Assembly: GCA_031265105.1 (NCBI GenBank)
Contig: JAISDC010000267.1
Coordinates: forward strand, 6,448-70,447
Source of the DNA: Verrucomicrobiales bacterium
Lineage (GTDB): Bacteria; Verrucomicrobiota; Verrucomicrobiia; Methylacidiphilales; JAAUTS01
Length of the DNA stretch: 64,000 nt
Direction: 5' to 3'
A program made the translations under genes and the position numbers. A model generated the notes under the pieces. It searched no databases, was not told where the DNA came from, and saw nothing but the letters and a program-made list of their open reading frames with translations. Of the stretch, positions 2,228 through 49,749 are shown piece after piece; positions within the stretch are counted from its first letter, which is position 1; every line of letters starts with the position of its first letter.

Positions 2228-4699
2228 TTAGAACTGGTGCCGGTAGCCCGCTGACAGTCCCCAAGGTTTGTCATACTTGTCGCCGAAGGAGGCTTCGTAG
2301 TCGAGGTGGAGTTGATTGTCAGCGTCGAGTTGCCAGATGATACCGCCACCGAGTTCGGCTCTGGCACCGTCAGTGTTGGCGCGGGTGGATTGATAACCGT
2401 TTCTGATGACGCCGCCGCTGCTGATGGTTTCGACGCCGCTGATCTTGATATAGGGTTGTAACGCGCCGCTGTTGGTGAGGTTGATGGTTCTGCCGAATAT
2501 GCTACCGAGGCGGAGTTGCAGGGCGTCGAGGTCTTGGGCGCTGATGCTCATCGGGCCGGCGGTGTAGTTCTCGGCGAGGATGCGGAGGTAGTTGACTTGG
2601 AACTGAGGTTCCACAAACCAACCATCGGTGAAGGTAAACTTATTACCGATTTCGAGGCTGCCGCCGAGGTTCACGTCGCTGTAGCTGGCTTTGAGTTGAG
2701 TGTTGCCGTAGGGGGCTTTTAGGTCGTTATCGACACTGGCAGCTTTGAAGGTGGCATCGATGTAGAAGCCGCTGGAGTGGAGCCAGGTGGCGTAGAGGCC
2801 GCCGTAGTAGGAGTTGAGTTCACCGTCAGCACCGGGAGTGCGGTAGTCTATATCACTGCGACCATAGCCGGCATAGACGCCCAAGTATAGGTCACTGTCA
2901 GCACTGATGGTGAACTTGTGATCCGTGCCGAGATCGACGCCGTAGATGAGTTGTTCGTAGGCTTTGCCTGCTACTTGGCTGCCGACGTTTAGCTGTTGGC
3001 CGTAGCTTCTTATCCAGATGTTGTCGATGAGGTTATGGAGCGCGGGCGTCCCGCCCGCTGGCGGGCGAGACGCCCGCGCTCCATAGCGCAACTCACCCAT
3101 GCGCTTGAGCAAACTGTTTTGCTGCGCGAACCACATGGCTTGTTGGATCGCTGCGCTGCTGTTCAATACCGCGCCGGCGGGGCTGGTGCCGTTCTTGATG
3201 AAGTGGTCACCGTCTTTGATAAGTTGGTCAATGCCCCAGTCAATCGGATCCCACTGCCAATTTTCCGTGCCGTCGCCGCTGACGATGCCGGGGAGGATTT
3301 TATTCGGGTCGGCCTTGCCATCGCCGGTGGTGTCGAGGTGAACTATGCCGTCACCGTCAGCGGTGCCGGTGATGGTGATGGAACCGCCTTCGCCGGTGTC
3401 GCTGTTGACATTGATGTTGACGGTGCCGCTGTGGGTCATGTTGTCGAAGATGACTTCATAATCGCCGATGTTCCACACGCCATTGTTCTCACCGTAGTTA
3501 CCGTGGCTGTTTTTGTCGAAAGTCCACACGCTATCGCCGCCGGTGATGAGGTTGCCGCCGGTGTAGCCGCCTTGGCCGGTGGCGCCAGTGTCGAGGATGA
3601 CGGTGACGGCAGCTTCATCGTTCTGCGCGATGTCGCCGAGCAGGGTGCTGTCGCTGCCACTGAGGGTGACCTGCAGGGTGGATGAATCGCTGCCGATGAC
3701 GTTGCCGGTCAGGTCGCTGTGGTACAAGTTTACCGTCGTATCGCCGGCATTGGCAGTCGTGATGTCGCCGGTCAAATCGGTGTTGATGAGGATTGCCGTG
3801 TGGACCCCGGAGTCGCTAGCTTTTACCGCCTCATGGGTTTGTGCAATGGTCACATCCTGCAAGATGGCAGTGCTACTTCCGGAGCCTTGAAACCGTATCC
3901 CGGTTGCATCCTCGCCGGTGGCCGTCAAGATCATGTCCGTCAAATAGACCGCGTTATCGCCGTCACCGCCTACCGCCACAAGATTAGCCGCTGACCCGCT
4001 GGTGGTGATGGAGCCGTGTCGGATGGTGATACCGCCTTCCCCCGCACTCCATGACGCCACTCCGTACGCTAACCCACCGCTGGTGTGAATCTCTATATCG
4101 GTAAAATCCGCCAGGCCGCTGCCGCCGATGCCAAAGGCTCGCGATCCCTCGGTGATAATCCGCACATTGGAACCGCTGACGGTGCTATTGCGGCTGCCAC
4201 TATTGTACACCTCGGTTAAAATGCCATAAGAATTCACGTCGCCCGTGGTGTGGATGACGGCGTTATCAATGGTAATGAGCGCGCCGGCACGCGCCCAAAC
4301 CCCATAGGAGGTCGTGCCACTCGTGGTGATGCGCACATCGTCCAACACCATGTGCCCCTGATAGGCAATCAGGCCAAACGCGCCATTGCCGGAGGTATTA
4401 ATGCTCACCGCGCTGCCACTCAGGAAAGAAGCGGCACTGTTGCCAGTGTTACTAATGTACAGGCCGTGACTGATGCTGCCGCTGGTGTCGATGGTCCACT
4501 CGTTAATGCCCGCAATCGTCCCGCCGTTACGCACAATGACGCCATAACCCCAAACCTGTGAGGTAGTGATGGTGCTTGGATTGATCGGCACCCGGTTGGT
4601 GCCGTCAACGGTCACCGTTTGCGCCAGCGCGCCGGTTGCCAGCCAGGGCCAGAGGCCGAGCAAAACGGCCCAGTTGATTAGTGTTAGTTTGGGGTTCAT
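2228..4699 (-). CDS. Autotransporter outer-membrane protein (beta-helix passenger + C-terminal beta-barrel), paralog 1
   Basis: ORF 2228..4849. The start was moved to M51 (4699), where a signal peptide begins (MNPKLTLINWAVLLGLWPWLATGALA). The passenger is G/T/S/N-rich and repetitive. The last ~280 aa form a classical autotransporter barrel ending GYRHQF. Confidence 0.85.
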   Translation of the reverse strand: MNPKLTLINWAVLLGLWPWLATGALAQTVTVDGTNRVPINPSTITTSQVWGYGVIVRNGGTIAGINEWTIDTSGSISHGLYISNTGNSAASFLSGSAVSINTSGNGAFGLIAYQGHMVLDDVRITTSGTTSYGVWARAGALITIDNAVIHTTGDVNSYGILTEVYNSGSRNSTVSGSNVRIITEGSRAFGIGGSGLADFTDIEIHTSGGLAYGVASWSAGEGGITIRHGSITTSGSAANLVAVGGDGDNAVYLTDMILTATGEDATGIRFQGSGSSTAILQDVTIAQTHEAVKASDSGVHTAILINTDLTGDITTANAGDTTVNLYHSDLTGNVIGSDSSTLQVTLSGSDSTLLGDIAQNDEAAVTVILDTGATGQGGYTGGNLITGGDSVWTFDKNSHGNYGENNGVWNIGDYEVIFDNMTHSGTVNINVNSDTGEGGSITITGTADGDGIVHLDTTGDGKADPNKILPGIVSGDGTENWQWDPIDWGIDQLIKDGDHFIKNGTSPAGAVLNSSAAIQQAMWFAQQNSLLKRMGELRYGARASRPPAGGTPALHNLIDNIWIRSYGQQLNVGSQVAGKAYEQLIYGVDLGTDHKFTISADSDLYLGVYAGYGRSDIDYRTPGADGELNSYYGGLYATWLHSSGFYIDATFKAASVDNDLKAPYGNTQLKASYSDVNLGGSLEIGNKFTFTDGWFVEPQFQVNYLRILAENYTAGPMSISAQDLDALQLRLGSIFGRTINLTNSGALQPYIKISGVETISSGGVIRNGYQSTRANTDGARAELGGGIIWQLDADNQLHLDYEASFGDKYDKPWGLSAGYRHQF
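3035..3084. repeat. REP-like palindrome, family C, inserted in frame in autotransporter 1
   Basis: ATGGAGCGCGGGCGTCCCGCCCGCTGGCGGGCGAGACGCCCGCGCTCCAT, with 14-bp perfect outer arms. Related copies lie at 39876..39925 (paralog 2) and 59420..59465 (intergenic). Confidence 0.8.
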
Positions 4700-4936
4700 G
4701 TTGGTTCTTTCGGTTGGTTGTTTGTGGTTGGTTAAAATAAAGGATTGACGCCTGGTCGCTCCCTGAGCGGAGGCGAATGGGCGGGTTGGCTCGGCAATGG
4801 GGCGAGCCGATCCTTCGGCTCTGCTCAGGATGACGGCGAGGCGGGGCACGGTCAGCGGACGGTGTCCTGCCGCATGGGGAATGAAGCGAACAAAACTCGG
4901 CGGGGAAATTAGAGAGTCGGGGCAGGCGTCGTGCTC

Positions 4937-5024
4937 TGAGCGCGTGAGCGCGTGAGCGCGTGAGCGCGTGAGCGCGTGAGCGCGTGAGCGCGTGAGCGCG
5001 TGAGCGCGTGAGCGCGTGAGCGCG
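4937..5024. repeat. Perfect 8-bp tandem repeat (TGAGCGCG)x11, which reads (CGCGCTCA)x11 on the minus strand
   Basis: Eleven contiguous identical units counted directly, about 238 nt upstream of the autotransporter 1 start codon. Confidence 0.95.
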
Positions 5025-5180
5025 ATGCTTTGATTCTATGGCCTATCTCTATCATCTTCAGCGGGTTACCGGGTTCTCGCTTTGATTTAACCACCGTGTT
5101 TTTTTAGTGGCCTGTGTCAGCGGGTACCGATAACAAGGTGAAACGGTATAGAATCAGCCTAACATGTGCAAGGATTTTTT
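4937..5180 (-). repeat. Element E copy 1: ~156-bp conserved module plus the 8-bp tandem tract
   Basis: The reverse complement of 5025..5180 aligns at roughly 75-80 % (by eye) with 59921..60083. Both end in the same octamer repeat. Conserved blocks include CCTGTTATCGG, GGCCAC.AAAAAAACA, GGTGGTTAA, CGCTGAAGATGA and CCATAGAATC. Confidence 0.75.
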
Positions 5181-5285
5181 TAACCACGGGTGAACACGGG
5201 AAAATTCCAAGCTCAAAACCATGACTCGTTATCTAGTTAACTCATCTTTGTGATCCGAGGAATCGGCGGGAAATCATGTTAGAAG

Positions 5286-7988: not shown

Positions 7989-8630
7989 TTACCCAAGCAT
8001 CCACTCCGGCATATTTTTCAAATCCTCCGGCGTGTGAAAATTAAACACCGGCGTCCGTCCCAACTCCTCCAAAATCGCCGGATTCGTCACCGCCGCCGCC
8101 AAGTCGTCAACATCAACAGAATAATGATTCACAATCACTCCCGCCAATTCACACCCCGACGCGCGCACGCTTTCAATCGTCAACAGCGTGTGGTTCAACA
8201 TCCCCAGCGTCGCCGGCGCGACAATCGCCACCGGCAGCGCCAACTCCCGCGCCCAATCGCGCACAAAATAATTCACCGTCAGCGGCACCAGCCAACCGCC
8301 GACGCCCTCGACCAAAAACGGTCCGGGAAATTTTGTCATCACCGCCTCAACGCCGTCACGCAACGCGCAAAAATCAAACGTTTTGCCCGCCACCAAACCC
8401 GCCGCATACGGCGACAACGGCGCGGCGAGGTGCACCGGATTAATTTGGTTCAACGTCAGCGTCCCGTCATTGGCAGCGGCGAATTGCTCCGCGTCCTCAC
8501 GCCCCCCGCAGGAAATCGGCTTCAACGCCAGCGCCAACTTCCCGCGTCGCCGCAACTCCCGCGTCCACGCCGCCGTGACAAAAGTCTTCCCCACGCCAGT
8601 CCCCGTCCCCGTGATAAAAATTCCGCGCAT
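7989..8630 (-). CDS. bioD: ATP-dependent dethiobiotin synthetase
   Basis: 213 aa with an N-terminal P-loop (MRGIFITGTGTGVGKTFV) and BioD-like length and layout. Confidence 0.9.
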   Translation of the reverse strand: MRGIFITGTGTGVGKTFVTAAWTRELRRRGKLALALKPISCGGREDAEQFAAANDGTLTLNQINPVHLAAPLSPYAAGLVAGKTFDFCALRDGVEAVMTKFPGPFLVEGVGGWLVPLTVNYFVRDWARELALPVAIVAPATLGMLNHTLLTIESVRASGCELAGVIVNHYSVDVDDLAAAVTNPAILEELGRTPVFNFHTPEDLKNMPEWMLG

Positions 8631-8717: not shown

Positions 8718-9233
8718 TCAGAAGTCCTCCAGTCTCATGGCAAAATCTATTTCGTGCCGGAGCGGTATCCCGTTCTGCCCGATATACGGTATGTCAGGCT
8801 TAAACGATTCCCGCTCCCGGTCTATCGCGCCCAAGTTCAAGCCGACCATGTCAAATCCGCGCTTTTGATAAAAGCCTATCGCGTTGATGTTGTCGTTCGA
8901 GGTCAACAGGCGCAGGATTGTACAACCGTTGGCAATGGCCGTCTGCTTTATATTATCAAGCAAAGCAGTACCAAGCCCGGTGCGTGGGCGTTCACTGTTG
9001 AGCGAAACAATTTCACAGGCATCACCGCGGATAATATAGGTCGCGAGTCCGATTACGTTTTCGCCGGATTCGTCCAACGCGATGAAGCCGGCGATTACGG
9101 CGCAGTCGATGATTTCGCTGCGAATCATTATTTGGGCGGTCTGCCACTTACGGGTGAGGTAAGTTGTCACAAGCTCGCGGGTCTCGGAGGTAATCGGCCT
9201 TATGCCGTGCGCGTTCGTCATATTGTAATTCAA
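8718..9233 (-). CDS. GNAT family N-acetyltransferase
   Basis: 171 aa with an acetyl-CoA-binding region (RPRTGLGTALLDNIKQTAIANG ... FYQKRGF). Visibly lower GC than the flanks. It lies between two copies of the bioD 5' end. Confidence 0.8.
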   Translation of the reverse strand: MNYNMTNAHGIRPITSETRELVTTYLTRKWQTAQIMIRSEIIDCAVIAGFIALDESGENVIGLATYIIRGDACEIVSLNSERPRTGLGTALLDNIKQTAIANGCTILRLLTSNDNINAIGFYQKRGFDMVGLNLGAIDRERESFKPDIPYIGQNGIPLRHEIDFAMRLEDF

Positions 9234-9449
9234 GCCTTTTCGATTCCCTATTTCAATCCTTGTAAATCCTGTTTCTCCGTGATTCCGGTTTTATCAGGTC
9301 GTGGCGGTACCCGTTCAAAGTCTTTGTCAAATCGTCCGGCGCATAAATCTCAAAATTTAAAATACCCGTCGCTGATGGCGCAGGTCAGCAACAGCGGCAA
9401 ATGGCGGCGCCTTGACAATTCACCGCGAATATATAATTCACACTAACAT

Positions 9450-9572
9450 GAAATCGGCTTCAACGCCCGCGCCGCGTTTCCGCGCCGCCGCAATTCCCGC
9501 ACCCACGCCGCCGTGACAAAGTTTTTCCAACGCCCGTGCCCGTGCCTGTGATGAAATTCCGCGCATATAAAT
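9450..9572 (-). pseudogene. Degenerate duplicate of the bioD 5' end (about codons 1-39 plus ~6 nt upstream)
   Basis: 9450..9572 aligns with 8512..8636 at ~80 % identity (by eye), including CCGCGCATATAAAT around the start codon. It is a direct repeat 938 bp from the functional copy. Confidence 0.8.
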
Positions 9573-9622
9573 CCCCAAAAGCCGTCAGCAACAACACTAT
9601 TCATGTGGCAAATCACACTGAC

Positions 9623-9650
9623 AAAAAACCCGTCGCTAACGACGGGTTTT
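9623..9650. terminator. Bidirectional rho-independent-type hairpin
   Basis: AAAAAA-CCCGTCG-CTAA-CGACGGG-TTTT: a 7-bp GC stem flanked by an A-run and a T-run. Confidence 0.5.
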
Positions 9651-9690
9651 GCGCTATAGCTTGGTTACGTTGCCCCAAAAGGCAAGAGGC

Positions 9691-9720
9691 TTGACCAAGC
9701 ATCACAGTTTTGAATATATT
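9691..9720 (+). promoter_or_regulatory. Candidate sigma70-type promoter for the Abi-like gene
   Basis: TTGACC (9691-9696), a 17-18 nt spacer, then ATATAT/TATATT (9714-9720), about 30 nt upstream of the ATG at 9750. Confidence 0.35.
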
Positions 9721-9749
9721 TCACGCGGCAGAACTGTCAAATATAAACT

Positions 9750-10421
9750 ATGGATTTCAATCAATTCCAAAAATTTTTTTCTGCGATGCGGGTTAATCGT
9801 TATTTGCAAGCCGTTCATGGCGAATCGGACGCCGCCATCAAATTATACCGAAACAATCTGAAAATCGCGCGCGCTTTTCATCCCTTGCTTGGCATTGTGG
9901 AAGTGGCATTACGCAACCGTCTCAATGATTTGCTGACGGTATATTTTCATGACGCGGACTGGATTATTAATCAGAAGAATGGATTCATGTCGGATTCGTC
10001 GTTAACCAACAGCTTTTTACGAGACGAGGTAACGCGAGCGGAAAAAAGATTAAAGCGTATGGGCGTGCCAGTAACGGCGGGAAAAATCATCGCTGAACAA
10101 TCATTCGGTTTTTGGTCGGATTTGTTCGCCAAATATCATTACCGGATTTTGCAAGGACGGGTCATCAAAGCATTTGTCAATCTGCCGCCAAACTGCGGGC
10201 GCAAGGAAGTCTATCGCAAGCTCGGGCAAATCAGAAAATTTCGCAACCGCATCAATCATAACGAACCGGTTTGTTTCAAAGGTGACACGGCGGATTTTAC
10301 TGAGGCACTGAAGGTGCATCAATCCATTGTCTGCATTTTGCAATGGCTGGGACCGGAATTATCTGAATTTGTCACGGGACTGGACGAAGTTCGGTATGAA
10401 ATTTCTAGCGCCGCGTCATAG
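9750..10421 (+). CDS. Abi-like protein (Abi_2 / AbiD-AbiF family)
   Basis: 223 aa. The N-terminal pattern (F..FS..R...YL.....D...A..LY..N..IA.AF...L..VEV.LRN) and C-terminal RNRINH-type helix match my recollection of PF07751 proteins. The surrounding island is low-GC. Confidence 0.7.
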   Translation: MDFNQFQKFFSAMRVNRYLQAVHGESDAAIKLYRNNLKIARAFHPLLGIVEVALRNRLNDLLTVYFHDADWIINQKNGFMSDSSLTNSFLRDEVTRAEKRLKRMGVPVTAGKIIAEQSFGFWSDLFAKYHYRILQGRVIKAFVNLPPNCGRKEVYRKLGQIRKFRNRINHNEPVCFKGDTADFTEALKVHQSIVCILQWLGPELSEFVTGLDEVRYEISSAAS

Positions 10422-10449
10422 CGATAAATAAAATTCAAATTTCAAAAAA

Positions 10450-10476
10450 CGCTGACGGTGAAACTCATCGTCAGCG
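10450..10476 (+). terminator. Hairpin formed by an inverted pair of the abundant motif (CGCTGACG-11 nt-CGTCAGCG)
   Basis: 8-bp stem located 29 nt after the Abi-like stop codon and preceded by an A-run. No strong T-tract follows, so terminator function is tentative. Confidence 0.35.
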
Positions 10477-10526
10477 AAGACTAACATTTTCTTGCTCACC
10501 ATCAGCGGCTGGCTATTCTTTGTTGC

Positions 10527-11180
10527 ATGAGCCGAAAATACAAAATATGGATTGTCGTTGGCGCCTGTCTCGTTGTCTTTTGCTATGGTGCGCTGATGCT
10601 CATGCTCGCTTTTGTCCAAAATGACGAAAAATTATCTTTTACCAACGGAGGCTCATCCGTGTTGCGTGTCCCTCGCTTTTGTAAGGTTAGCAGTCAAAAT
10701 TTCGTTTACGCGAATAATCATGTGACCGTCAGCGGTCAAGCTAACACCACCGCCCGCAATTTTATCCCACAGCTTCAGCCGTTATCTTTGAAATTCAACG
10801 AAATGAGATTGCGCGTGACCGATGCCCCCGCTGACGGTGAAGTGATTATTCGCTCTGATTTAAAACTAAGAAAATTCAACTTAAAGTTAAAAACTCTCGT
10901 GGGTGTGCGTTCTTGGCCGCAGCCATCAGCGACGCGCGACACCAAACTGCTCAGCGTCAGCGTGATCATGACGCCTGACGGCCTCCGATTAAACGACGTG
11001 CCATGCACACAGAATGAATTGCCGTCCAAGTTGAGCGAGCTTGCCGCAAAATATTCCAATTCACTCATGCTTAATTTTACCCTGGCGGGCGAGATTCAAT
11101 ACGGCGATTTTTTCAAGGTCTTGCAACAATGCCAAATCCCGGCGTTCGGCAATTTCAGAGTATCTGAACTTCGCCGCTGA
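10527..11180 (+). CDS. Hypothetical membrane-anchored protein (weak ExbD/TolR-like C-terminal region)
   Basis: 217 aa with one N-terminal TM helix (IWIVVGACLVVFCYGALMLMLAF). The tail (VIMTPDGLRLNDVPCTQNELPSKLSELA...GEIQYGDFFKVLQQC) loosely resembles ExbD periplasmic domains. Confidence 0.5.
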   Translation: MSRKYKIWIVVGACLVVFCYGALMLMLAFVQNDEKLSFTNGGSSVLRVPRFCKVSSQNFVYANNHVTVSGQANTTARNFIPQLQPLSLKFNEMRLRVTDAPADGEVIIRSDLKLRKFNLKLKTLVGVRSWPQPSATRDTKLLSVSVIMTPDGLRLNDVPCTQNELPSKLSELAAKYSNSLMLNFTLAGEIQYGDFFKVLQQCQIPAFGNFRVSELRR

Positions 11181-11296
11181 CAGTCACCGTTTTTGCTTTT
11201 TCGGACAGTCGCCCAATTAATTTCCCCAAGGTTAATCTCCGCCGTCAGCGGTGCCTCGCGATATGTGAATGGCAAATGACTCGACACCACCGGTCG

Positions 11297-11324
11297 TTGA
11301 CAGCATGGTCAGCGACATTATACT
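11297..11324 (+). promoter_or_regulatory. Candidate promoter giving a leaderless or near-leaderless lepB mRNA
   Basis: TTGACA (11297-11302), a 16-nt spacer, then TATACT (11319-11324). The ATG lies at 11331, only 6 nt past the -10 element. Confidence 0.35.
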
Positions 11325-11330
11325 TCGCTC

Positions 11331-11939
11331 ATGACCACGCCGCCGCCGCTGCCCGTCCCGTTCCCGCACCGTTGTTCAACCGAAGCGCTTTGGAAAAAAA
11401 CCGTCATTGGATTATGCCTGTTTTCAGCACTTATCGGCACGACACTTTTATTGTTGCGGCTTACCGGAGGGCTGCGCTGTTTCTTTGTGCCGACCAACAG
11501 TATGGCACCGGCGGTCGCTGCCGGTGACCATATCATCATGGACGGCGTTTCATTTTGGTTTCGCGAGCCTCGGCGCGGCGACATCGCCATTTTCAAGACC
11601 GGCGACATTCCCAGATGGCCGGATAATATTTTCGCCCAACGCATTGCCGGTTTGCCGGGTGATAAAATTAAAATCTCCGATGGCAATTTATTCATCAACG
11701 GCGCGCAAGTCTTTTTGTACAATCGCAACGGCAACATCATTTACACCCTGCCGGACCAACGGTCGGATGCCAGGTACCTTACCGAAACAACCGTGCCGCC
11801 GGACTGCTACTTCATGCTGGGCGACAATTCCGCAAACAGCTTCGACAGCCGTTACCGGGGCGTTGTCCCGCGCCGCGCCATCATGGGACGCGCTCTTTAT
11901 TGTTATTATCCGCTCGCCAGAACCGGCGTGATTCAATAA
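11331..11939 (+). CDS. lepB: Signal peptidase I
   Basis: 202 aa with S26 boxes: SMAPAV (catalytic Ser), GDHIIMD, RRGDIAIF, QRIAGLPGDKI and MLGDNSANSFDSRY. Confidence 0.85.
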   Translation: MTTPPPLPVPFPHRCSTEALWKKTVIGLCLFSALIGTTLLLLRLTGGLRCFFVPTNSMAPAVAAGDHIIMDGVSFWFREPRRGDIAIFKTGDIPRWPDNIFAQRIAGLPGDKIKISDGNLFINGAQVFLYNRNGNIIYTLPDQRSDARYLTETTVPPDCYFMLGDNSANSFDSRYRGVVPRRAIMGRALYCYYPLARTGVIQ

Positions 11940-12043: not shown

Positions 12044-13411
12044 TTAATTCACAACCTCTTCGATCCCCTTGCACAACGCGCTGACCATGACGTCAACTTC
12101 AGCGGGCGTCGTCGTGTACGGCGGCATCAACAGCAACACATCACGCCCAGCCGGGCGCGTGAGCAGGCCGTGTTTTTTCGCCGCCTCGCACACGCGCGCG
12201 CCGACGCGCAGCGACGGGTCAAACGGCTCGCGCGTGGAAAAATCCTTCACCAATTCGATTGCCAGAATACAGCCCTCCTGCCGCACGTCGCCGACCGCTG
12301 GCAGTGACCAAAATTTTTCATGCGCCGCTGTCAACGCCGCTGCCAATCGCCGCTGACGGTCGGCGCAATTGTCGCTTTGCAAAATATCCAACGTCGCCAG
12401 CGCCGCCGCGCAACCGAGTTGGTTGCCGGTGTAACTGTGACCGTGGAAAAATGTCCGCGTCGCGTCGCCGCGAAAACCGTCAAAAATTTTCTCTGTCAGC
12501 AACGTCACCGCCAGCGGCAGATAACCACCGGTGAGCGCCTTCGCCAGCGCAACCAAATCCGGCGCGACCTGTTCTTTTTGCCACGCGAATATCGCGCCCG
12601 TGCGTCCGAAGCCGGTCATCACTTCGTCGAGAATCACCAGCGCGCCGTGCCGTTGCGCGATGGCGCAGGTTTCCGCCAGATAATTGTCCGGATGCATGAT
12701 GAAGCCCGCCGCCCCTTGCACGCGCGGCTCGACGACCCACGCCGCCGCGCGCGCACCGTCAGCGGCGAATTTTTTCTCCACCGCTGCGATACACTCGCGC
12801 CCGCACCGCGCGTAAGCGCGCGCGTCAGCGCGTTGCGGCGCGGCTTGGTTGAACGGGCAGCGGTAGCAATACGGCACCGGCACCTCGTCCGACTCGAACA
12901 GCATGTTTCTATAACAATGATGAAACAACTTGCTATGCCCGACGCTCATCGCGCCGACCGTGTCCCCGTGATACCCCGCTGACAGTGACACGAATTTTTT
13001 CCGTTGCGGCTCGCCGTTCTGCGCGAAAAACTGATACGTGATTTTCAACGCCGCCTCAATCGCCGTCGCCCCGTCGTCGGAAAAAAAGCAGCGCGTGAGC
13101 CGGTCATCGTCAGCGAGTTCGACCAGCCGTTTCCCCAACACCGGCGCGAGTTCATTGGTCAGCCCAAGGAACGACGAATGAGCAATCCGGTCAAGCTGCG
13201 CCCTAATCGCCCCGCTGACCGTGGCGTTGCGATGCCCGTGAATATTCGTCCAAATGGAAGAATTGCCGTCGAGATATTTATTCCCCTGGTCGTCGCACAA
13301 CCACGACCCGTCCCCGCTGACAATGACCGTCGGCGCATAATCCGCTGCCAGCCAGGCATCCGTCAGCGTGAACGGATGCCACAAATATTTTTTATCCAGC
13401 GCGGCGGGCAT
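12044..13411 (-). CDS. bioA: Adenosylmethionine-8-amino-7-oxononanoate aminotransferase
   Basis: Class-III PLP aminotransferase (YLWHPFT, GNSSIWTNIHGH, SAGYHGDT, ILDEVMTGFGRTG). The start was moved from 13465 to MPAALDKKYLW (13411) because the first 18 ORF codons are REP-A sequence. Confidence 0.9.
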   Translation of the reverse strand: MPAALDKKYLWHPFTLTDAWLAADYAPTVIVSGDGSWLCDDQGNKYLDGNSSIWTNIHGHRNATVSGAIRAQLDRIAHSSFLGLTNELAPVLGKRLVELADDDRLTRCFFSDDGATAIEAALKITYQFFAQNGEPQRKKFVSLSAGYHGDTVGAMSVGHSKLFHHCYRNMLFESDEVPVPYCYRCPFNQAAPQRADARAYARCGRECIAAVEKKFAADGARAAAWVVEPRVQGAAGFIMHPDNYLAETCAIAQRHGALVILDEVMTGFGRTGAIFAWQKEQVAPDLVALAKALTGGYLPLAVTLLTEKIFDGFRGDATRTFFHGHSYTGNQLGCAAALATLDILQSDNCADRQRRLAAALTAAHEKFWSLPAVGDVRQEGCILAIELVKDFSTREPFDPSLRVGARVCEAAKKHGLLTRPAGRDVLLLMPPYTTTPAEVDVMVSALCKGIEEVVN

Positions 13412-13414
13412 CGG

Positions 13415-13452
13415 AAAATTTAACCACAGATTTACACAGATGGACACCGATA
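13415..13452. repeat. REP-A half element (TTAACCACAGATTTACACAGATGGACACCGAT)
   Basis: Member of the GTGTYCATCCGTGTCCATCCGTGGTTAAAA family seen at eight sites in the window. Confidence 0.75.
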
Positions 13453-13526
13453 GTTTGATTTTCAATATTTACAGATAGGAGCCATATAGTGTGTTATCGT
13501 CAGCGTCAGGGCTAGGGCGGCAGGCG

Positions 13527-18015: not shown

Positions 18016-18126
18016 AATAAACTCCAGTGTTTGGTTAATTTAGTTCTGACAAAGGCATGATGTTAGCGAGCCATCCTGCCGAGGCAAGTGGGGAATTGGC
18101 TCGGTGCCGCGGTGGTTTTCCCGGTG

Positions 18127-18188
18127 AACGCTGAACTACCCCGTCTGCTTGCGCGGCCATCCCTTCGCGGAAGGGGTAGTTCAGCGTT
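18127..18188. repeat. REP-B hairpin (AACGCTGAACTACCCC ... GGGGTAGTTCAGCGTT)
   Basis: 16-bp perfect stem enclosing CCATCCCTTCGCGGAAGGGG. It lies between the activase and transketolase-like genes. Confidence 0.8.
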
Positions 18189-18219: not shown

Positions 18220-21200
18220 TTAATTGGCATTTGGAGTTTGGCATTTGGAATTTTCCCCGCCGGGAAGACTCGCCGCCGCCAATTCCTCCCTTGCGCTGTG
18301 GATGAGGAAATGCAGCCGGTTGAAAATATTCACCTCACTCACGCCCGGGTCGAAGTCCAGGCACAGCAAATTCAGGCGCGGATACAAATCGCGCAAACGG
18401 CGCTCAATACCCTTGGCGACCAGTTGATTGGCGATGCAGCCGAAGGGTTGCACGCTGACGGCGTGGTGGATGCCGCGTTCGGCGAGGGCGGACAACTCGG
18501 CGGGGATGAGCCAGCCCTCGCCGTATTGCGCGGCGGGGCTGACGAGGCGCGTCGCGGCGGCGTGACCGTCAGCGAGATTTTCCAGCGGTTGCTGATAACG
18601 AAACCCGGCGGCGGCGCGGGTGAATTTTTCGCGGTACAACTCCAGCACTGTTCGCAGCGCGGGGTCTAGCAAATCGCTGACGGTGAGGCGGGACAGGTGC
18701 TGCTCACGGTTGCTGCGGCGGTTGAAAAATTCCTGCAGGAAAAAATCCGCCAGCGGCGGCACGACCGGCTCCACGCCTTGCGCGATGAGCCACTCGACCA
18801 GGTGCCGGTTGCCGGCGGCGTTGTGCTTGACGTAAATCTCGCCGACCACGCCGACGCGCGGGCGCGGCGCTGACGATGGCGTGACGGCGTTGAACTCGCG
18901 CGCGGCGGCGCGCAGCAAGGCGGGCAACGCGGCGGCGTCCCGTCGCCGCACCCGCGCCACCCCGTCGGCGAGATACCGGTCGCGCACCCGCGCGGCGGCG
19001 CCGGGCGCGGTCTCGCGCGGCGCGGCGGCGTGATACATTGACGCGAGACTGTCAGCGTAAAACAGCGCGGCGACGGCGAGCCGGCGGCGCCCGCGCCAAC
19101 GCAGGCGAAAACCGGGCTGCGCGTTGCGCACCGCGCCGGCGGCGGTGCCGATGGCGACCACCGGCACGTCGGCGAAACCGGCGGCGCTGACGGCGCGGCG
19201 GATGAGCGCGGCGTAAGCGGTGGCGCGGCATTGCCCGCCGGTCTGCGTGATGGCGAGGGCGACCTGGTCGCGCCGGTGGCGGCCCGACTCGAGCGCGCGG
19301 ATGAAATCGCCCGCCACCAGCGTCGCCGGATAACACACCTCATTGTTGGCGAACCGCAAGCCGCGCTCGGCGGACGCGGCGTCGGGCGGCGGCAGCGTGA
19401 CGGCGCGGTGCCCCAGCAACTCCAGCAACGGCGCGATGAACGGCGAGTGGCACGCGGAGAAAAACGGCACCAGCAGCGCGCGGTCACGGTCAGCGGCGGT
19501 GTATAATTCCCCTTCCGTGAAGGGGTGGCGGCGCGCGCCGACGGGGTAGTTCAGCGTTTTGCGCTGCGTCCCCTCTAACGCTGAACTACCCCGTCCGCTG
19601 CGCGGCCACCCCTTCGCGGAAGGGGAATTGCCCAAGCCGCAATCACGCGCGGCTTCCAATGACCTTAGCGGAGCGGAACCATTATTATCCGCCGACGGTG
19701 AGGAAAAATTCACCGCCGCTGACGGTGCCACTCGCCGCGCGAGGCTCTCAATCAGCGAGCGCGCGCGCAACCGCAACGCGCCGGGCGTTTGCATATCGTC
19801 CACCTTCAAAACCGTGTGACTCTTGCCCGCGCGCCGCAACCGGTCGCCGACCGAGTCCGTGAGAAACGCGTCCGGCCCGCAACCGAACGACGTGAGTTGC
19901 ACCAACTGCACCTGCGGCGGCGCGGCGGCCACCCACACGGCGGCCTGGCGCAAGCGGTTGGGATACGACCAGCGACCGGCGGCGGGCGCGCCGCCCCGCG
20001 CGACATCCTCGCTGACCACATCGGCGCCGAGCGCGCACAACAACTCGGCGGCGCGGTGCTGTATCAGCGGGTCGGCGTGATACGGCCGCCCCGCGAGCAC
20101 CAGCAGCGGGCGCGAACCGTCATTGCCGGCGACGATGGCGCGCGCGTGCTCCGCCGTCGCCCTGACAAATTCATCCTGCGCGGCGAGCGCTTGCGCGAAG
20201 GCTCGGGCAAAAATCCTCGCGCTAACGTTGAGCGTGCCGACCAAATACTCGCGGCAGGATTTTCGCAACAACCCGACATCGCCGAACGTCAGCACCGGCG
20301 CGTCCAGCGGCACGCCGTGACGGTCGGCGGGATTGATGGCGCTGCGGATGACGTCGGCGTAGCCGCTGACGATGGGGCAGTTGTACGCGCCGTCCCGCTC
20401 GCGCACGGCGAACGGCATCAGGATGCGGTCCACGTCGCGCGCGAGCAAATCGCGGACGTGCCCGTGCGCGAGCTTGGCGGGGAAACAAATGTTGTCCGCC
20501 ATGACGCTCGCCGCGCCGCTCTCCGCCAGCGCGGGCGTGGAGGGCGCGGAGAGCGTGACGCCGCACCCGCCGGCGGTGAGCAGCGTGTGCCAGAACGGAA
20601 AATTCTCGTAGCAACCGAGCGCGCGCGGGATGCCGATGTTCGGTCGCTGACGGTCACGCTCACCGTCAGCGGCGGCGCGGTCGAACAGCAGTTGCAGTTT
20701 GCGCGGGAAAAAATTCGCGCCGCGCCGCCGCCGCTGGCCGCTGTTGGTGAAAATTTTCTCGCACTTGTTGCCGGAACAAAACGCGCCGCCGCCGGCGAAC
20801 CGGCGCAGCGTCACGCGGCAATGATTGTCGCAACCGGGACACACGCGCTCCCCGGCGGTCGAGTTCACCGGCAGCGTCAGTGCCGCCAGTGGGCGCGGCG
20901 GCGCGGTCACCGTCAGCGCGCGCCACGCCGCGCCGTAAGCGCCCATCAGCTCCGGCAGCGGCGCGATGGCGATGGGTTTCCCTAACAACCGCTCCAGCGC
21001 CCGCGCCACGGCGTGATTCCGCATGACGCCGCCCTGCACGACCACGCGCGGGCCGAGTTCGTCCGCGTGTTTGAGCTTGAGCACTTTGTACAAGCAATTT
21101 TTCGCCACCGCGTAGGCCAGGCCGGCGGCGAGGTCGGCGGGCGCGGCGTTCTCGCGCAACGCCTGCCGCACCCTGGAATTCATGAACACCGTGCAGCGCG

Positions 21201-23404: not shown

Positions 23405-23432
23405 AAATGTCAGAAAAATAAACCGGGCCAAG

Positions 23433-23586
23433 AACGCTGAACTACCCCGGCGGCTGGCGCCGCCACCCCTTCACGGAAGGGGAATCGCTGGCGCGGAGAC
23501 CAATCCCGCTGACCCTGACCTATGCGCGAGCAAATTCCCCTTCCGTGAAGGGGTGGCCGCGAATGCGGACGGGGTAGTTCAGCGTT
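23433..23586. repeat. REP-B pair in the opposite arrangement (unit - 47 nt - inverted unit)
   Basis: AACGCTGAACTACCCCGG..CCACCCCTTCACGGAAGGGGAAT ... AATTCCCCTTCCGTGAAGGGGTGG..GGGGTAGTTCAGCGTT. Confidence 0.8.
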
Positions 23587-23857
23587 CGGTGCTACCTGAA
23601 AACGACAGAAAAATCAGGCGCAGCCACAAATTGATGACCAACAGCGTCACGGAGCCGAGCAGCCATAACATCACGGTCTTGTCACCGTCAGCGACCGGAT
23701 GGCCGAGCCAATCAAAGCGGATGGGAATTTGTTGCGGCGCGCGGGAATAAACGTGGAGACCATAAAACAAAACTATCGCAAACACCAACCACGCGCCGAT
23801 GACATTAAACCAATCGCGAGCCGTTACCGGCACTTTAATTTTCGGCGGTTGATTCAT
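23579..23857 (-). CDS. Small membrane protein, DUF1648-like
   Basis: ORF 23579..23905; a start at MNQPPKIKVP (23857) is preferred. It has two TM helices and an IPIRFDWLGHPVADGDK motif. The 3' end runs into REP-B. Confidence 0.4.
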   Translation of the reverse strand: MNQPPKIKVPVTARDWFNVIGAWLVFAIVLFYGLHVYSRAPQQIPIRFDWLGHPVADGDKTVMLWLLGSVTLLVINLWLRLIFLSFSGSTER

Positions 23858-26651: not shown

Positions 26652-26750
26652 TTTTTTAACCACCGATGAACACGGATGCACACGGATAGTTCGCGGTACC
26701 GCGTAAATTAACATCATCCGTGTCCATCGGTGTTCATCGGTGGTTAAAAT
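26652..26750. repeat. REP-A full inverted pair
   Basis: TTTTTTAACCACCGATGAACACGGATGCACACGGAT ... CATCCGTGTCCATCGGTGTTCATCGGTGGTTAAAAT. Confidence 0.85.
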
Positions 26751-28472: not shown

Positions 28473-28478
28473 AACTAG

Positions 28479-28563
28479 TTTTCAACCACGGATGGACACG
28501 AATGGACACGGATGATGGACGGACGGATCAAGGGATGCTTGAAATAGCTGTATTTATCCGTGT

Positions 28564-28581
<18 letters not shown>
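28479..28581. repeat. REP-A inverted pair
   Basis: TTTTCAACCACGGATGGACACGAATGGACACGGATG ... ATCCGTGTTCATTCGTGGTTAAAAAA. The right arm supplies the last codons (..FFNHE) of the ATPase gene. Confidence 0.85.
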
Positions 28582-29550
<969 letters not shown>

Positions 29551-39068: not shown

Positions 39069-41174
39069 TTAGAACTGGTGACGGTAGCCCGCGGTCAGGC
39101 CCCAGGGTTTGTCGTACTTGTTGCCGAAGGAGGCTTCGTAGTCCAAGTGCAACTGATTGTTGGTGTCGAGTTGCCAGATGAGGCCGGCGCCGAGTTCGGC
39201 TCTGGCACCGTCAGTGTTAGCGCGGGTGGATTGATAGCCGTTTCTGATGGCGCCACCGCTGCTGATGGTTTCGACGCCGCTGATCTTGATATAGGGTTGT
39301 AACGCGCCGCTGTTGGTGAGTTTAATGGTTCTGCCAAACAAGCTACCGATGCGGAGTTGCAGGGCGTCGAGGTCTTGGGCGCTGATGGTCAAGGGAGCGG
39401 CGCTGTAATTCTCGGCGAGGATGTGGAGGTAGTTTACTTGGAGTTGTGGCTCGATGAACCAGTCATCGGTGAAGGTGAATTTGTTGCCAATCTCAATGCT
39501 GCCACCGATATTCACGTCGCTGTAGTTGGCTTTGAGTTGGGTGGTGCCGTAAGGGGCTTTCAGGTTGTTGTTGACACTGGCAGCCTTGAAAGTGGCATCT
39601 ATATAGAAGCCGCTGGAGTGGAGCCAAGTGGCGTAGAGGCCGCCGTAGTAGCTGTTGAGTTCACCGTCAGTGCCGGGGGTGCGGTAGTCGAGGTCGCTGC
39701 GACCATAGCCGGCATACACTCCAAGATACAAGTCACTGTCAGCGCTGATGGTGAACTTGTGATCCGTGCCGAGATCGACGCCGTAGATGAGTTGTTCGTA
39801 GGCTTTGCCTGCTACTTGGCTGCCGACGTTTAATTGTTGGCCGTAGCTTCTGAGCCAGAGGTTGTCGATGAGGTTATGGAACGCGGGCGTCTCGCCCGCC
39901 AGCGGGCGGGACGCCCGCGCTCCATAGCGCAGTTCACCCATGCGTTTGAGCAAACTGTTTTGCTGCGCGAACCACATGGCTTGTTGGATGGCCACGCTGC
40001 TGTTGAGGACGGCGCCGGCGGGGCTGGTACCGTTTTTCACGAAGTAGTCGCCGTCTTTGATGACGGTGTCGATGCCCCAGTCGATGGGATCCCACTGCCA
40101 GTGCTCCGTGCCCTCGCCGCTGACGATGCCGGGCAGTACGTCGTTGGGATTGAGTTGGCCGTTGCCGGTGGTGTCGCTGTGGACTTTGCCTTCACCGTCA
40201 GCGGTATCGGTTATGTGGATGGAGCCACCCTCGCCGGTGTCGCTGTTGACGTTGATGTTGATGGTGCCGGTGTGGGTCAGGTTGTCGAAGATGACTTCGT
40301 AGTCGCCGATGTTCCACACGCCGTGGTTCTCGCCGTAGTTGCCGTGGCTGTTTTTGTTGAAGGTCCACGCGCTGTCCTCGCCGGTGATGAGGTTGCCGCC
40401 GGCGAAGCCGCCGCTGCCGATGGCGCCGGTGTCAAGGATGACGGTGATGGTGCTGTCGTCGTGTTGCGCGATGTCGCCGGTGAAGCTGCTGCCGGGGCCG
40501 CTGACGGTGACATCGATGGTGGCGGTGCCGCTGGCGGTGAGGTCACCGATGATGCCGCTATTTTTGCCATTGATGGTTAGGGAACCATCGTTGGTGTTAG
40601 CGCTGTTACCGGTCAGATTGGTGTCGTCCAAATTAATGGTAATATTTCCGTGACCGTTATTAACCACATCGCCGATGATGCCGCTGCCGTTGTTGACATT
40701 GACGGTCATGTCGCCTTGCGCGCCACTGCCAGCGGTGAGACCGCCAGCTTGCGTGGCGTCCGCGTGGTCCAGTGTCAGCGTGACGGTGCCGCCGGTGGTG
40801 ACTTCATCATTAATCAGGCCGTTGGTTATTAATCTGGCGCCATCACTGACGGTCACGTGCATCGTGTTGGCGCTGCCGTTGCCGTTGGTTGAGGTGTTAA
40901 TCAGCGGCGTATTGGGCGCGTCAATCGTGCCGCCGATGATTTCCACAGTTTTGACGCCATTGCGACCGACCACGGTGAAAATACCGGCCGCCGTGTCGGT
41001 TTCTATCGTGGGATTTTCCAAATGCAGCAACGCATTGCCACCGTCAGCGAAACGTACCGCATAGTCGGTGCCGCGATAGATGATACGTGTGTTGCTGCCC
41101 GTCACGGTTCCGCCCGCACCGGTATAACCAATCACCCGTAACCTCGATGAATCAATCGTGGCGCCGGTACCCAA
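39069..41174 (-). CDS. Autotransporter paralog 2, C-terminal 701 aa (passenger repeats + beta-barrel); lacks its own signal peptide
   Basis: The last ~470 aa are ~90 % identical (by eye) to paralog 1. The ORF begins at a TTG inside a 7-nt tandem duplication and continues the upstream ORF 41152..41946 if one repeat unit is removed. Confidence 0.8.
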   Translation of the reverse strand: MGTGATIDSSRLRVIGYTGAGGTVTGSNTRIIYRGTDYAVRFADGGNALLHLENPTIETDTAAGIFTVVGRNGVKTVEIIGGTIDAPNTPLINTSTNGNGSANTMHVTVSDGARLITNGLINDEVTTGGTVTLTLDHADATQAGGLTAGSGAQGDMTVNVNNGSGIIGDVVNNGHGNITINLDDTNLTGNSANTNDGSLTINGKNSGIIGDLTASGTATIDVTVSGPGSSFTGDIAQHDDSTITVILDTGAIGSGGFAGGNLITGEDSAWTFNKNSHGNYGENHGVWNIGDYEVIFDNLTHTGTININVNSDTGEGGSIHITDTADGEGKVHSDTTGNGQLNPNDVLPGIVSGEGTEHWQWDPIDWGIDTVIKDGDYFVKNGTSPAGAVLNSSVAIQQAMWFAQQNSLLKRMGELRYGARASRPLAGETPAFHNLIDNLWLRSYGQQLNVGSQVAGKAYEQLIYGVDLGTDHKFTISADSDLYLGVYAGYGRSDLDYRTPGTDGELNSYYGGLYATWLHSSGFYIDATFKAASVNNNLKAPYGTTQLKANYSDVNIGGSIEIGNKFTFTDDWFIEPQLQVNYLHILAENYSAAPLTISAQDLDALQLRIGSLFGRTIKLTNSGALQPYIKISGVETISSGGAIRNGYQSTRANTDGARAELGAGLIWQLDTNNQLHLDYEASFGNKYDKPWGLTAGYRHQF
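39876..39925. repeat. REP-C palindrome in frame in autotransporter 2
   Basis: ATGGAACGCGGGCGTCTCGCCCGCCAGCGGGCGGGACGCCCGCGCTCCAT. Confidence 0.8.
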
Positions 41175-41946
41175 CTCCCAACTCCAAAGCGCCGCCTTCG
41201 ATGTTAATAGTATGACTACTGCCGCCGTTCATGTGGGTCAGTTGCAGGTTGTTGCCAAAGGTCAGGCGGGCGGCGCGCGCCACGGTTATAGCTAGTTTAT
41301 AGGTGAGGATTTCCGCCTCATTGCCAACGGTCACTTGACTATTATTCAGGACGTTAAGCATGGCATAGGGACCAGTATGAGAACCGCTGATTTGGAATCG
41401 GTCGCCGATTGTGACGACGGCATTGGTGGCGCTCAAAGCTGCGCCTGCGCCAGTGTTAGCGACGACATTGGAGTTAGTGTTGATAATCCGCACATCGTCG
41501 CCAAGGGAGGCGTAGCTGTCACGGATGTTAATTCTCGTCGCATCCTTGGAAGCGACATTGATCGTCAGCCCGCCGGTCACCGTCAGCGTGCCGCCATTGG
41601 TCACGAGCATACCGGTGGTATTTTGCGTGTAGGAATTTATCGTGCCACCCGCCTGAATACGCAAAAACGCCGCATCCACGGACACCACCGGCCCCCAACG
41701 GTCGCCGGTTTGCGCGGAATTAAAGACGCTGGCGGTATCCACCGTGTATTTGGTATCCGCGTTAACGACTTCCAAGGCGATGTCAGATGCGCCCGTCTTT
41801 GCGGTCAGGTTCAATGCCCCGTCGCTGACGGTGGTGCCGGAGGTGATGCTGGAGGTTGCCGCTGCCATTGCACTCAACGGCAACACCGCCATGCCGCTGA
41901 CAGTCAGCAACAATGCGGTCCAGTTTGATATGATATTGTTATTCAT
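41152..41946 (-). CDS. Autotransporter paralog 2, N-terminal fragment (signal peptide + passenger start)
   Basis: A start at MNNNIISNWTALLLTVSGMAVLPLSAMA (41946) is preferred. The ORF ends 8 codons after the 7-nt duplication. Confidence 0.7.
   Translation of the reverse strand: MNNNIISNWTALLLTVSGMAVLPLSAMAAATSSITSGTTVSDGALNLTAKTGASDIALEVVNADTKYTVDTASVFNSAQTGDRWGPVVSVDAAFLRIQAGGTINSYTQNTTGMLVTNGGTLTVTGGLTINVASKDATRINIRDSYASLGDDVRIINTNSNVVANTGAGAALSATNAVVTIGDRFQISGSHTGPYAMLNVLNNSQVTVGNEAEILTYKLAITVARAARLTFGNNLQLTHMNGGSSHTINIEGGALELGVGYRRHD
41171..41185. repeat. 7-nt tandem duplication (coding sense GGAGTTG GGAGTTG) that frameshifts autotransporter 2
   Basis: The plus strand reads CCAACTC CCAACTC. 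Deleting one unit fuses ..INIEGGALEL to GTGATIDSSRLRVIGYTG.. in frame. Confidence 0.85.
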
Positions 41947-42085
41947 TTTGATTTTTTGGTTATCTATCACCACACTATTACGAGCATGGAGCTCGTATTT
42001 ATAAACGGCCCCGCGTTAAGGGGCAAGATTTTTTTGCGAGCCTGGTGCTCGTAATTAATCGCCGGTCTGTTGGCATCCTAGAAAT

Positions 42086-42298: not shown

Positions 42299-42338
42299 AC
42301 CGCCCGCTGCCGGTGCCTCTAAAACTCTTAGAGCCTGT

Positions 42339-49720: not shown

Positions 49721-49749
49721 CTTTATAAGTAATTTATACTAAACAAGTT

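Follow-up and report, generated by a model that had tools for sequence, protein, structure and literature searches.

An octamer-repeat leader cassette dispersed upstream of surface-protein genes in termite-gut Verrucomicrobiales: a candidate frame-dependent switch

Two octamer tracts and a shared module

The 64,000-nucleotide (nt) stretch of DNA analysed here (the window) derives from a Verrucomicrobiales bacterium (GenBank assembly GCA_031265105.1, contig JAISDC010000267.1, positions 6,448 to 70,447 of the forward strand). It bears two tracts of a perfect tandem octamer, (CGCGCTCA)n, each embedded in a conserved module that precedes a gene. Tandem Repeats Finder (period 8) placed copy 1 at 4937–5024 on the minus strand, with 11.0 units and 100% matches (the unit reads TGAGCGCG on the plus strand and CGCGCTCA on the minus strand), and copy 2 at 60084–60134 on the plus strand, where 6.4 units, again with 100% matches, occupy 51 nt; both tracts agreed with a direct reading of the sequence. 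When the window was searched for the 16-mer CGCGCTCACGCGCTCA, allowing up to two mismatches, 15 matches were obtained against 0.28 expected by chance, all of them within the two tracts. The ∼150 nt on the 5′-side of each tract could be aligned between the copies, with long invariant blocks; the mean column identity was 77% across the whole 360-nt aligned stretch, and the conserved 29-base pattern CGCTGAAGATGAnnGAGATAGnCCATAGAATC had two exact matches in the window versus 0.00 expected. The distance from the end of the tract to the downstream start codon was 238 nt for copy 1 (ATG 4699 of the gene for autotransporter 1) and 371 nt for copy 2 (ATG 60506 of an open reading frame (ORF) of low GC content), both modules being oriented toward their own downstream gene. 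The unit numbers, the two distances, the opposite strands and the 75–80% identity with conserved blocks given in a first-pass annotation of this DNA were all borne out.

Autotransporter 1 (2228–4699, minus strand) is an 823-residue protein with a Pfam autotransporter beta-domain (PF03797, E = 1.1e-39), and its gene is the one that copy 1 would control in the reading proposed below. No exact or near-identical copy of it is on record; its relatives are confined almost wholly to metagenome-assembled genomes (MAGs) of Verrucomicrobiales, and a glycosyltransferase-like protein encoded in the window is 75% identical to proteins of Verrucomicrobiales MAGs. Copy 2 is followed on the plus strand by low-GC ORFs of 172, 243 and 87 residues (60506–62019, GC 0.38–0.42), for which no match was found in Pfam, PADLOC or NCBIfam; only the second of them (61021–61752) has a signal-peptide-like N-terminus. 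The earlier description of two secreted-protein loci therefore holds for the autotransporter, but past copy 2 only for this second ORF. Nor does the module end at the tract, as had been supposed, since in copy 1 it is conserved for at least 75 nt more, to ∼4862, across the family described below. The two modules had also been taken for an inverted pair. Their orientations are indeed opposite, but there is no sign of the pair working as a unit, and the two are only two of more than 50 family members. The idea that they form a structural unit (the ends of an element, or an invertible segment) was rejected, since the family is dispersed and each copy faces its own gene.

A dispersed cassette family and its anatomy

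A scan for three units of the octamer, using one genome per species (185,579 species genomes), listed at least 79 loci. Among the matches listed, at least 50 loci with 52 tracts came from three termite-gut Verrucomicrobiales MAGs: Verrucomicrobiales bacterium Gx481_bin192 (at least 46 loci, at least 48 tracts), Gx481_bin94 (at least three loci) and Pc512_bin95 (at least one). The other 29, found in GC-rich genomes of unrelated bacteria such as Streptomyces and Sorangium, were short tracts without the module or common flanks. In the three MAGs, the module of the window was present at every tract that has upstream sequence, and the ∼75 nt past the tract were also common to most loci, as in window copy 1. 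The number of units per family member ranged from 3 to at least 14; the repeats were perfect in ∼50 related copies, and their sense orientation was kept. The genes lying 3′ of the cassettes encode autotransporters (PF03797), PEP-CTERM proteins, PATR-repeat proteins, a CsgG-like lipoprotein with TPR repeats, and several proteins of 220–245 residues without a family match; many are paralogous autotransporter genes with 83–90% DNA identity to that of the window. The search for further copies and their downstream genes, which the first-pass annotation had put forward as a check, thus yielded at least 52 tracts, mostly ahead of surface-protein genes, and a positional relation to genes was found as well: each copy with enough downstream sequence to judge reads CGCGCTCA toward a gene, at a constrained distance. 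In Joint Genome Institute (JGI) metagenomes there were no matches either to a cassette-plus-tract pattern or to a tract-free cassette pattern, and one pattern scan of viral contigs returned none. The lineage that hosts the cassette is uncultured and known only from metagenomes. Not every autotransporter gene has a cassette, since a second autotransporter paralogue of the window (39069–42822, minus strand), which is split into three ORFs, has none upstream. Both window autotransporter genes contain the 52-nt palindrome TATGGAGCGCGGGCGTCCCGCCCGCTGGCGGGCGAGACGCCCGCGCTCCATA (3034–3085 and 39875–39926).

The modules are interpreted as copies of a portable promoter-plus-leader cassette, whose anatomy was read from alignments of 37–48 copies (∼48 in that of the cassette). 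From 5′ to 3′ it comprises, often, a long palindrome (AACCACGGATGGACACGGATG...) resembling repetitive extragenic palindromes (REP-like), then two A-tracts, a –35-like hexamer, a –10-like hexamer, a hairpin, AACCCGCTGAAGATGA and the tract. The consensus of the hexamers is TTGC(G/A)(C/T), 17–18 nt, TA(T/C/A)(C/A)(G/A)T, and the layout of A-tract, TTGC, 17–18 nt and TAnnnT is kept in ∼43 family members. The putative promoter of copy 1 (5143–5183, minus strand) has A7 at 5181→5175, TTGCAC at 5171→5166, a 17-nt spacer and TACCGT at 5148→5143, while that of copy 2 (59919–59964, plus strand) has an A-rich stretch at 59919–59934, TTGCGT at 59936–59941, a 17-nt spacer and TACCAT at 59959–59964. TTG, TAnnnT and the 17-nt spacer are the positions of most weight in sigma-70 promoters, and the A-rich stretch upstream is UP-like, which suggests that the cassette carries a sigma-70-like promoter upstream of the tract.

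Across the family, the tract starts 61–140 nt past the –10-like hexamer. A hairpin of variable length begins ∼7 nt past this hexamer, its long form being closed by the pairing of GTTATCGG with CCGATAAC. In copy 1 the hairpin spans 5065–5134 on the minus strand (outer stem formed by GTTATCGG at 5134→5127 with CCGGTAAC at 5072→5065, inner stem GGCCAC...GGTGGTT), and in copy 2 it spans 59973–60043 on the plus strand (GTTATCGG at 59973–59980 with CTGGTAAC at 60036–60043). The covariance and fold analysis advised in the first-pass annotation gave a partial result: RNAalifold found 18 pairs in 12 members of the subclass to which the window copies belong, mostly kept via one-sided changes and with two compensatory ones, while neither the window nor four related loci gave an Rfam 15 match at the gathering score. 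At the same leader position, other subfamilies show either an inner stem that differs or just a short hairpin. No tRNA or tmRNA was found at the cassettes in a scan for these genes. A long-range pairing of CCGCTGAAGATG with the downstream CATTCCCCATSCGG was considered and discarded, as inspection revealed no supporting covariation.

AACCCGCTGAAGATGA is nearly invariant, and is followed by 27 more nt without indels and then by the tract. The post-tract consensus reads (T)TATGACTnCTGCCCCGAyTCTTTAATTTCCCnGCnGAGTTTTACCCnTTTCATTCCCCATsCGG. The corresponding segment of copy 1, defined by the family alignment (4862–4936, minus strand; ..GCCCCGACTCTCTAATTTCCCCGCCGAGTTTT..TTCATTCCCCATGCGG..), is C-rich and G-poor, with 30 C versus 17 G in the first 78 nt past the tract, and the family mean for these 78 nt is 35% C and 17.5% G; a pattern built from the segment had its sole window match at copy 1. 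Beyond the consensus lies a locus-specific leader of 100–500 nt, and then the start codon of the main gene.

REP-like intergenic palindromes, with units AACCACGGATG(G/A)ACACGGATG, occur in the window at 5176–5211, 13416–13451, 26652–26749, 28478–28581, 48455–48545, 49642–49724 and 61873–61912. The first of these is a half palindrome that abuts the putative promoter of copy 1 on its upstream side, and such a palindrome sits directly upstream of many MAG cassettes; they are probably bidirectional terminators, including of the gene upstream of the cassette. The members of a second palindrome family (∼55 nt, AACGCTGAACTACCCCG...CCCCTTCACGGAAGGGGAAT) lie at 18126–18181, 19506–19558, 23432–23485 and 23534–23587, and a related sequence is found in the leader of one family locus (L061). 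The window also holds 31 copies of the 12-mer CGCTGACGGTGA (15 plus, 16 minus; e.g. 8273–8285, 20660–20672, 28595–28607 and 53575–53587) and 61 of the 10-mer CGCTGACGGT; the abundance of CGCTGACGGTGA resembles that of a DNA uptake sequence. The invariant CCGCTGAAGATGA of the cassette differs from this motif by just 2–3 bases, and its 59 near-matches in the window, against 1.35 expected, mostly represent the CGCTGACGGTGA/CGCTGACGGT motif.

Leader reading frames and the proposed switch

An ATG lies within the sequence CTGAAGATGA, 31 nt 5′ of the tract, in 46 of 49 cassettes, despite many indels further upstream. The positional entropy across CTGAAGATGA is ∼0, and the 31-nt spacing also holds in divergent copies. 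In copy 1, CTGAAGATGA occupies 5052–5061 of the minus strand, with the putative leader ATG at 5055→5053; in copy 2 the ATG is at 60053–60055. The 8-nt unit is not a multiple of three, and none of the sense frames of the tract contains a stop codon (TGA occurs on the antisense strand). Past the tract, most copies have a TGA (in TTATGAC) after 3 nt in one frame and a TAA (in CTnTAATTT) after ∼23 nt in a second. The third frame is open for 160–580 nt, ending on or shortly before the main start codon. This long frame ends in an ATGA overlap with the main start at L006, both copies at L008, L009, L029, L066, L069, L077 and L051; stop-codon contexts suggest the same overlap at L030 and L021, and at ∼10 more loci the frame ends 8–42 nt upstream of the main start. 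For 29 loci, the leader from the conserved segment to the main ATG (5846 nt in total) contains 24 stops in the long frame, nearly all of them terminal, versus 74 and 124 in the other two frames, and the long frame is kept open through leader sequences that are unrelated between loci. Arrays of 9–17 copies of a 21-nt palindromic unit were noted at L005, L006, L012, L013, L021, L023, L025, L037, L041, L043, L048, L060, L062 and L080. They lie 100–530 nt past the tract, inside the long open frame, where they read as 7-codon repeats; the unit sequence differs at every locus while period and position are constant, and, as hairpin arrays, they may make the OFF state tighter.

The frames are not used evenly. 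Only 3 of 38 loci are in the long frame by a longest-open-frame criterion, and the loci of a stricter subset of 27 fall into the three frames as 1, 7 and 19 (chi-square, P = 9e-5), although the paralogous loci in these counts are not statistically independent and n = 4 may be partly inherited. The largest subfamily has eight copies with n = 4, three with n = 7 and one with n = 9; going from 4 to 7 adds three units and preserves the frame. A non-coding spacer would show no such frame bias or three-unit steps. Given that the tract lies 31 nt past an invariant ATG and is followed by frame-specific stops, the reading frame of the leader is most probably the variable that matters.

It is therefore proposed, with a probability of about 0.6, that the tract acts as a frame-dependent ON/OFF switch via the leader ORF that runs through it, by translational coupling or polarity. 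The sigma-70-like promoter would start an mRNA whose 5′ leader consists of the hairpin followed by CTGAAGATGA, and the ATG in the latter would open a short leader ORF leading straight through (CGCGCTCA)n, whose translation would give RSRAHALT repeats. Each 8-nt unit gained or lost by replication slippage would shift the leader frame. In two of the frames, translation would end at the early stops present in most members, yielding a short peptide and leaving a long C-rich leader RNA untranslated; in the third, ribosomes would read on to a stop that overlaps the main start or lies just before it, and only this state would permit expression of the downstream surface-protein gene. The ON state might come about by termination-reinitiation coupling, to which the ATGA overlaps point, by shielding of the leader from Rho-type polarity or from a structure masking the ribosome-binding site, or by a mix of these. 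Early termination could expose C-rich, G-poor RNA to Rho and so cause polarity; the base composition after the tract is that of Rho-loading sites, and it is from this composition that a role of Rho is suggested. At some loci, ribosomes would have to traverse 120–190 leader codons, through the 21-nt hairpin arrays, before handing over at the ATGA overlap. Dozens of such loci in each genome would let a population show shifting mixes of autotransporters and other surface proteins. In all this, the anatomy, the frame statistics and the distribution of the family are observed, whereas the promoter, leader translation, the coupling or polarity step and switching itself belong to the proposal. The wider proposition, that a genome-wide portable switch cassette stands before more than 50 unrelated surface-protein genes of termite-gut Verrucomicrobiales, with loci flipping independently, is put forward more tentatively, its odds being judged a little less than even.

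As assembled, both window copies are predicted to be OFF, i.e. in a short frame, and one unit away from the long frame. The leader ORF of copy 1 (4909–5055, minus strand) has 48 codons and ends at TAA 4911→4909, 25 nt past the tract; with 10 or 13 units, its ATG would enter the long open frame of the family. That of copy 2 (60053–60169, plus strand) has 38 codons and ends at TGA 60167–60169, while with one unit more the frame of its ATG would be open for 240 nt, to TAA 60375–60377.

A single locus allowed repeat numbers to be compared between strains. Over 2.25 kb that take in the glycosyltransferase-like gene along with the module, L085, which comes from another JGI sample, matches the window at 98.2% identity; its tract has three units (CGCGCTCT CGCGCTCT CGCGCTCA) versus 11 in the window, a difference that chimeric assembly of L085 could account for. 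The idea of slipped-strand phase variation, suggested in the first-pass annotation, fits the perfect non-triplet repeats, the range from 3 to at least 14 units, the surface-protein genes and, if L085 is correctly assembled, this 3-versus-11 difference, whereas the mechanism it had put forward, a change of promoter or untranslated-region spacing by a non-integral number of helical turns per unit, does not fit a tract that lies 61–140 nt downstream of conserved hexamers with a fixed 17-nt spacer.

Several observations weigh against a frame switch. The post-tract sequence of L085 (2227–2378, compared with 4860–5024 in the window) also differs, resembling that of family member L037, and the junction reflects either cassette recombination between strains, swapping downstream genes, or a chimeric assembly; Logan contigs from SRR14710921 and SRR14710922 break off at the tract or just short of it every time. 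The window copies themselves are imperfect. In copy 1 the post-tract TGA has been lost (T-to-A relative to its nearest relative, L070), so that the second frame is open to 92 nt inside the main ORF, and the long frame, which lacks its terminal stop, continues into the autotransporter ORF as an in-frame fusion. Copy 2 has lost a part of the conserved post-tract segment, and its long frame stops 131 nt before the main ATG. Since both depart from the canonical layout, it is the family, more than these two members, that carries the model. A well-spaced Shine-Dalgarno sequence is missing before the leader ATG (GAAG lies right against it), whereas main ORFs have GAAAGAA or GGAG 7–10 nt upstream of their start. 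Neither the 10 codons before the tract nor the conserved segment after it showed codon periodicity in their variation, which means that conservation acts on nucleotides rather than codons; the sequence of the leader peptide itself is probably unimportant, and what appears to be selected is the act of translation and its frame. The openness of the frame is the sole argument for leader translation, and the shared n = 4 could reflect recent duplication and the low mutability of short tracts rather than frame selection. A sigma-70 consensus scan of both window copies and two MAG loci called no promoter on the cassette strand, the hexamers being too far from the Escherichia coli consensus for the scanner (each hexamer of copy 1 matches it at three of six positions); the promoter is thus proposed from conservation. 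A simple scan of the same four cassettes, blind to Rho-dependent termination, found no intrinsic terminator on the leader strand.

Among the alternatives, the one that fares best, though it is considered unlikely, is that tract length tunes the 5′ untranslated region independently of translation, by altering mRNA structure, stability or protein binding, with graded effects on expression. The 7-bp repeats of Haemophilus influenzae hmw1A/hmw2A and the AGAT repeats in the 5′ untranslated region of Moraxella catarrhalis uspA2 act in such a graded, frame-independent way. The position of the tract downstream of the putative promoter, the conservation of nucleotides instead of codons around it and the poor Shine-Dalgarno context of the leader ATG would all suit this explanation. 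Whole leaders also fold somewhat better than shuffled controls (z = –2.7 and –2.6), the folds being otherwise uninformative. A helix across the tract, formed by the complementary AAGTCATAA and TTATGACTT that flank it in the largest subfamily, would fit as well, but it was rejected as a general feature since it is missing in the other subfamilies, including both window copies. Tuning of this kind leaves unexplained the invariant ATG at 31 nt, the two conserved stops, the third frame that is open to the main start, the three-unit periodicity and the frame bias of the repeat numbers.

It is improbable, though only slightly more so, that the tract is a neutral microsatellite, drifting without a regulatory role in the shared promoter and 5′ untranslated region of a recently expanded gene family. 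Many of the downstream autotransporter genes are paralogous, at 83–90% DNA identity, so that their upstream regions may have been inherited in part by duplication, and many copies share n = 4. The cassette, however, also stands before unrelated genes (those for PEP-CTERM and PATR proteins, the CsgG-like lipoprotein, the 220–245-residue proteins and a low-GC foreign operon), and the tract has stayed perfect and sense-oriented throughout the 50-plus copies. Frame use is strongly non-random, and the long frame survives non-homologous leaders, including those with different 21-nt arrays.

More doubtful still is that the tract is the target of a trans-acting factor, i.e. that one antisense small RNA or protein binds it in ∼50 leaders, with tract length setting the strength of the effect. 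The same octamer does occur in dozens of leaders of one genome, and a length-dependent leader target has a precedent in Helicobacter pylori, where the small RNA RepG is reported to act on the tlpB leader's variable G-repeat (PMC8295292). Against this, no antisense (TGAGCGCG)n tract that does not face a gene was present among the loci fetched, no candidate regulator was identified, and the frame features would go unexplained.

There is very little to be said for the cassette being a small-RNA gene, as the first-pass annotation had offered as an alternative, or a miniature inverted-repeat transposable element, in either case with no link to the downstream gene. Many dispersed copies do lie beside REP-like palindromes, but Rfam had no match, no terminator was found past the tract in the two window copies, and no terminal inverted repeats or target duplications were visible in the 37–48-copy alignments (no formal search was made for them); moreover, each judgeable copy faces a gene at a constrained distance, and viral contigs yielded no match. 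Hardly credible, finally, is a promoter-spacing switch, as in Neisseria nadA or Bordetella fim, in which unit number would alter the spacing of promoter elements or of an activator site relative to the core promoter: an 8-bp unit does amount to a non-integral number of helical turns, but the sole conserved promoter-like hexamers, with their constant spacer, are upstream of the tract, no second conserved –35/–10 pair is found downstream of it, and its length, from 24 to >112 bp, is beyond what any spacer could accommodate. Nothing supports a regulator-binding array, the other alternative of the first-pass annotation. Taken together, the start codon, the stops, the open frame and the frame bias are explained by none of these alternatives.

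The surroundings of the window cassettes show signs of rearrangement. Of the two low-GC islands (GC 0.38–0.48), one, at 9000–11500, holds an Abi_2 protein, and the other, at 60200–62000, the unannotated ORFs past copy 2. Copy 2 also lies beside a weak RelB/DinJ-like antitoxin match (59539–59805) and a nucleotidyltransferase and NTase_sub_bind pair (61965–62680), and for these reasons may drive horizontally acquired genes. The first ∼209 nt of bioA (Aminotran_3, 12044–13465, minus strand), at 13210–13418, are duplicated in inverted orientation at 62744–62952, with 93% identity. A class I/II aminotransferase gene (58202–59335, plus strand) is possibly bioF, since in the related contig L082 its place is upstream of bioA; in the window it lies ∼45 kb from bioA and from bioD (7989–8630), both on the minus strand, whereas in L082 these genes are adjacent and collinear. 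The opposite facing of the two window cassettes probably results from the biotin operon region having undergone a large inversion or rearrangement.

Relation to known systems and significance

The closest known system is the leader-peptide switch of Streptococcus gallolyticus pil1 and pil3, in which a (GCAGA)n repeat in a leader-peptide gene sets the length of the leader, a long leader disrupting a terminator (PMC3894217, Danne et al. 2014); it provides an experimental precedent for the mechanism. As in pil1, a promoter (here putative) precedes a small leader ORF (here presumed to be translated) that holds a non-triplet repeat, and the repeat frame makes the leader short (here with stops at +3 and ∼+23 nt) or long (160–580 nt). 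In pil1 the long leader gives high expression of the downstream surface-structure genes, and the same is proposed here. More than one genomic locus carries the same repeat in both cases, although at least 50 family loci are found here versus two. The systems differ in that the unit is of 8 nt rather than 5 nt, with no sequence similarity, and in that no stem-loop terminator was found between leader stop and gene. The long frame typically ends on the main start (ATGA), which argues for coupling or Rho-type polarity instead of terminator melting. The host, too, is different, a Gram-negative Verrucomicrobiales gut symbiont and not a streptococcus, and the present system is known from sequence alone.

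Contingency loci with the repeat inside the ORF include Neisseria opa, with (CTCTT)n in the signal-peptide region, H. influenzae lic1, with (CAAT)n, and the poly-G tracts of Chlamydia pneumoniae pmp genes. With these the cassette would share a frame shifted by repeat slippage, a multigene family of surface proteins and a majority of copies out of frame; unlike them, it has the repeat in a separate upstream ORF, so that the surface protein sequence and its signal peptide are untouched. Since the repeat is outside the structural gene, the switch can sit before unrelated genes. Repeats in the promoter or 5′ untranslated region of adhesin genes, such as (TAAA)n in nadA, the 7-bp repeats of hmw1A/2A and (AGAT)n in uspA2, act on transcription or mRNA level in a graded manner. 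Here, also, a variable-number repeat lies upstream of an autotransporter or adhesin gene, but the evidence of start codon, stops and frame statistics favours a translational frame switch. For the step that would follow leader translation, parallels are the tna operon of E. coli (tnaC with Rho) and termination-reinitiation between adjacent genes at ATGA overlaps. The features in common are a downstream expression decided by leader translation (proposed here), a C-rich, G-poor stretch past the early stops, and a stop-start overlap; unlike in tnaC, the input here would be a heritable repeat length and not a metabolite or ribosome stalling. Criteria for translational coupling have been set out (PMC3711429). 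Literature searches on the octamer, and on phase variation in Verrucomicrobia or in symbionts of termites, turned up the S. gallolyticus paper and general reviews but nothing else of relevance.

The cassette has practical consequences for genomes of this lineage. Gene callers will miss the leader ORFs, and short-read assemblies break or mis-join at the tracts, so that MAGs are probably fragmented at exactly these loci.

Repeat contingency loci are known mainly from host-adapted pathogens, usually within the structural gene or its promoter. Here the repeat appears to occupy a leader ORF of its own, so that the protein is unaffected and the switch can be transferred between genes, and it has seemingly spread to dozens of surface-protein genes in a symbiont from the insect gut that belongs to the phylum Verrucomicrobiota and is uncultured. 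If the proposed mechanism is true, it would extend the one experimentally described leader-peptide repeat switch, that of S. gallolyticus pil1, to another phylum, to a different coupling mechanism and to a genome-wide scale, providing combinatorial surface variation at the level of leader translation far larger than in any leader-peptide repeat switch described so far. It would also place such variation outside the pathogens in which contingency loci are known, and would suggest that gut symbionts vary their surface proteins stochastically, much as pathogens do.

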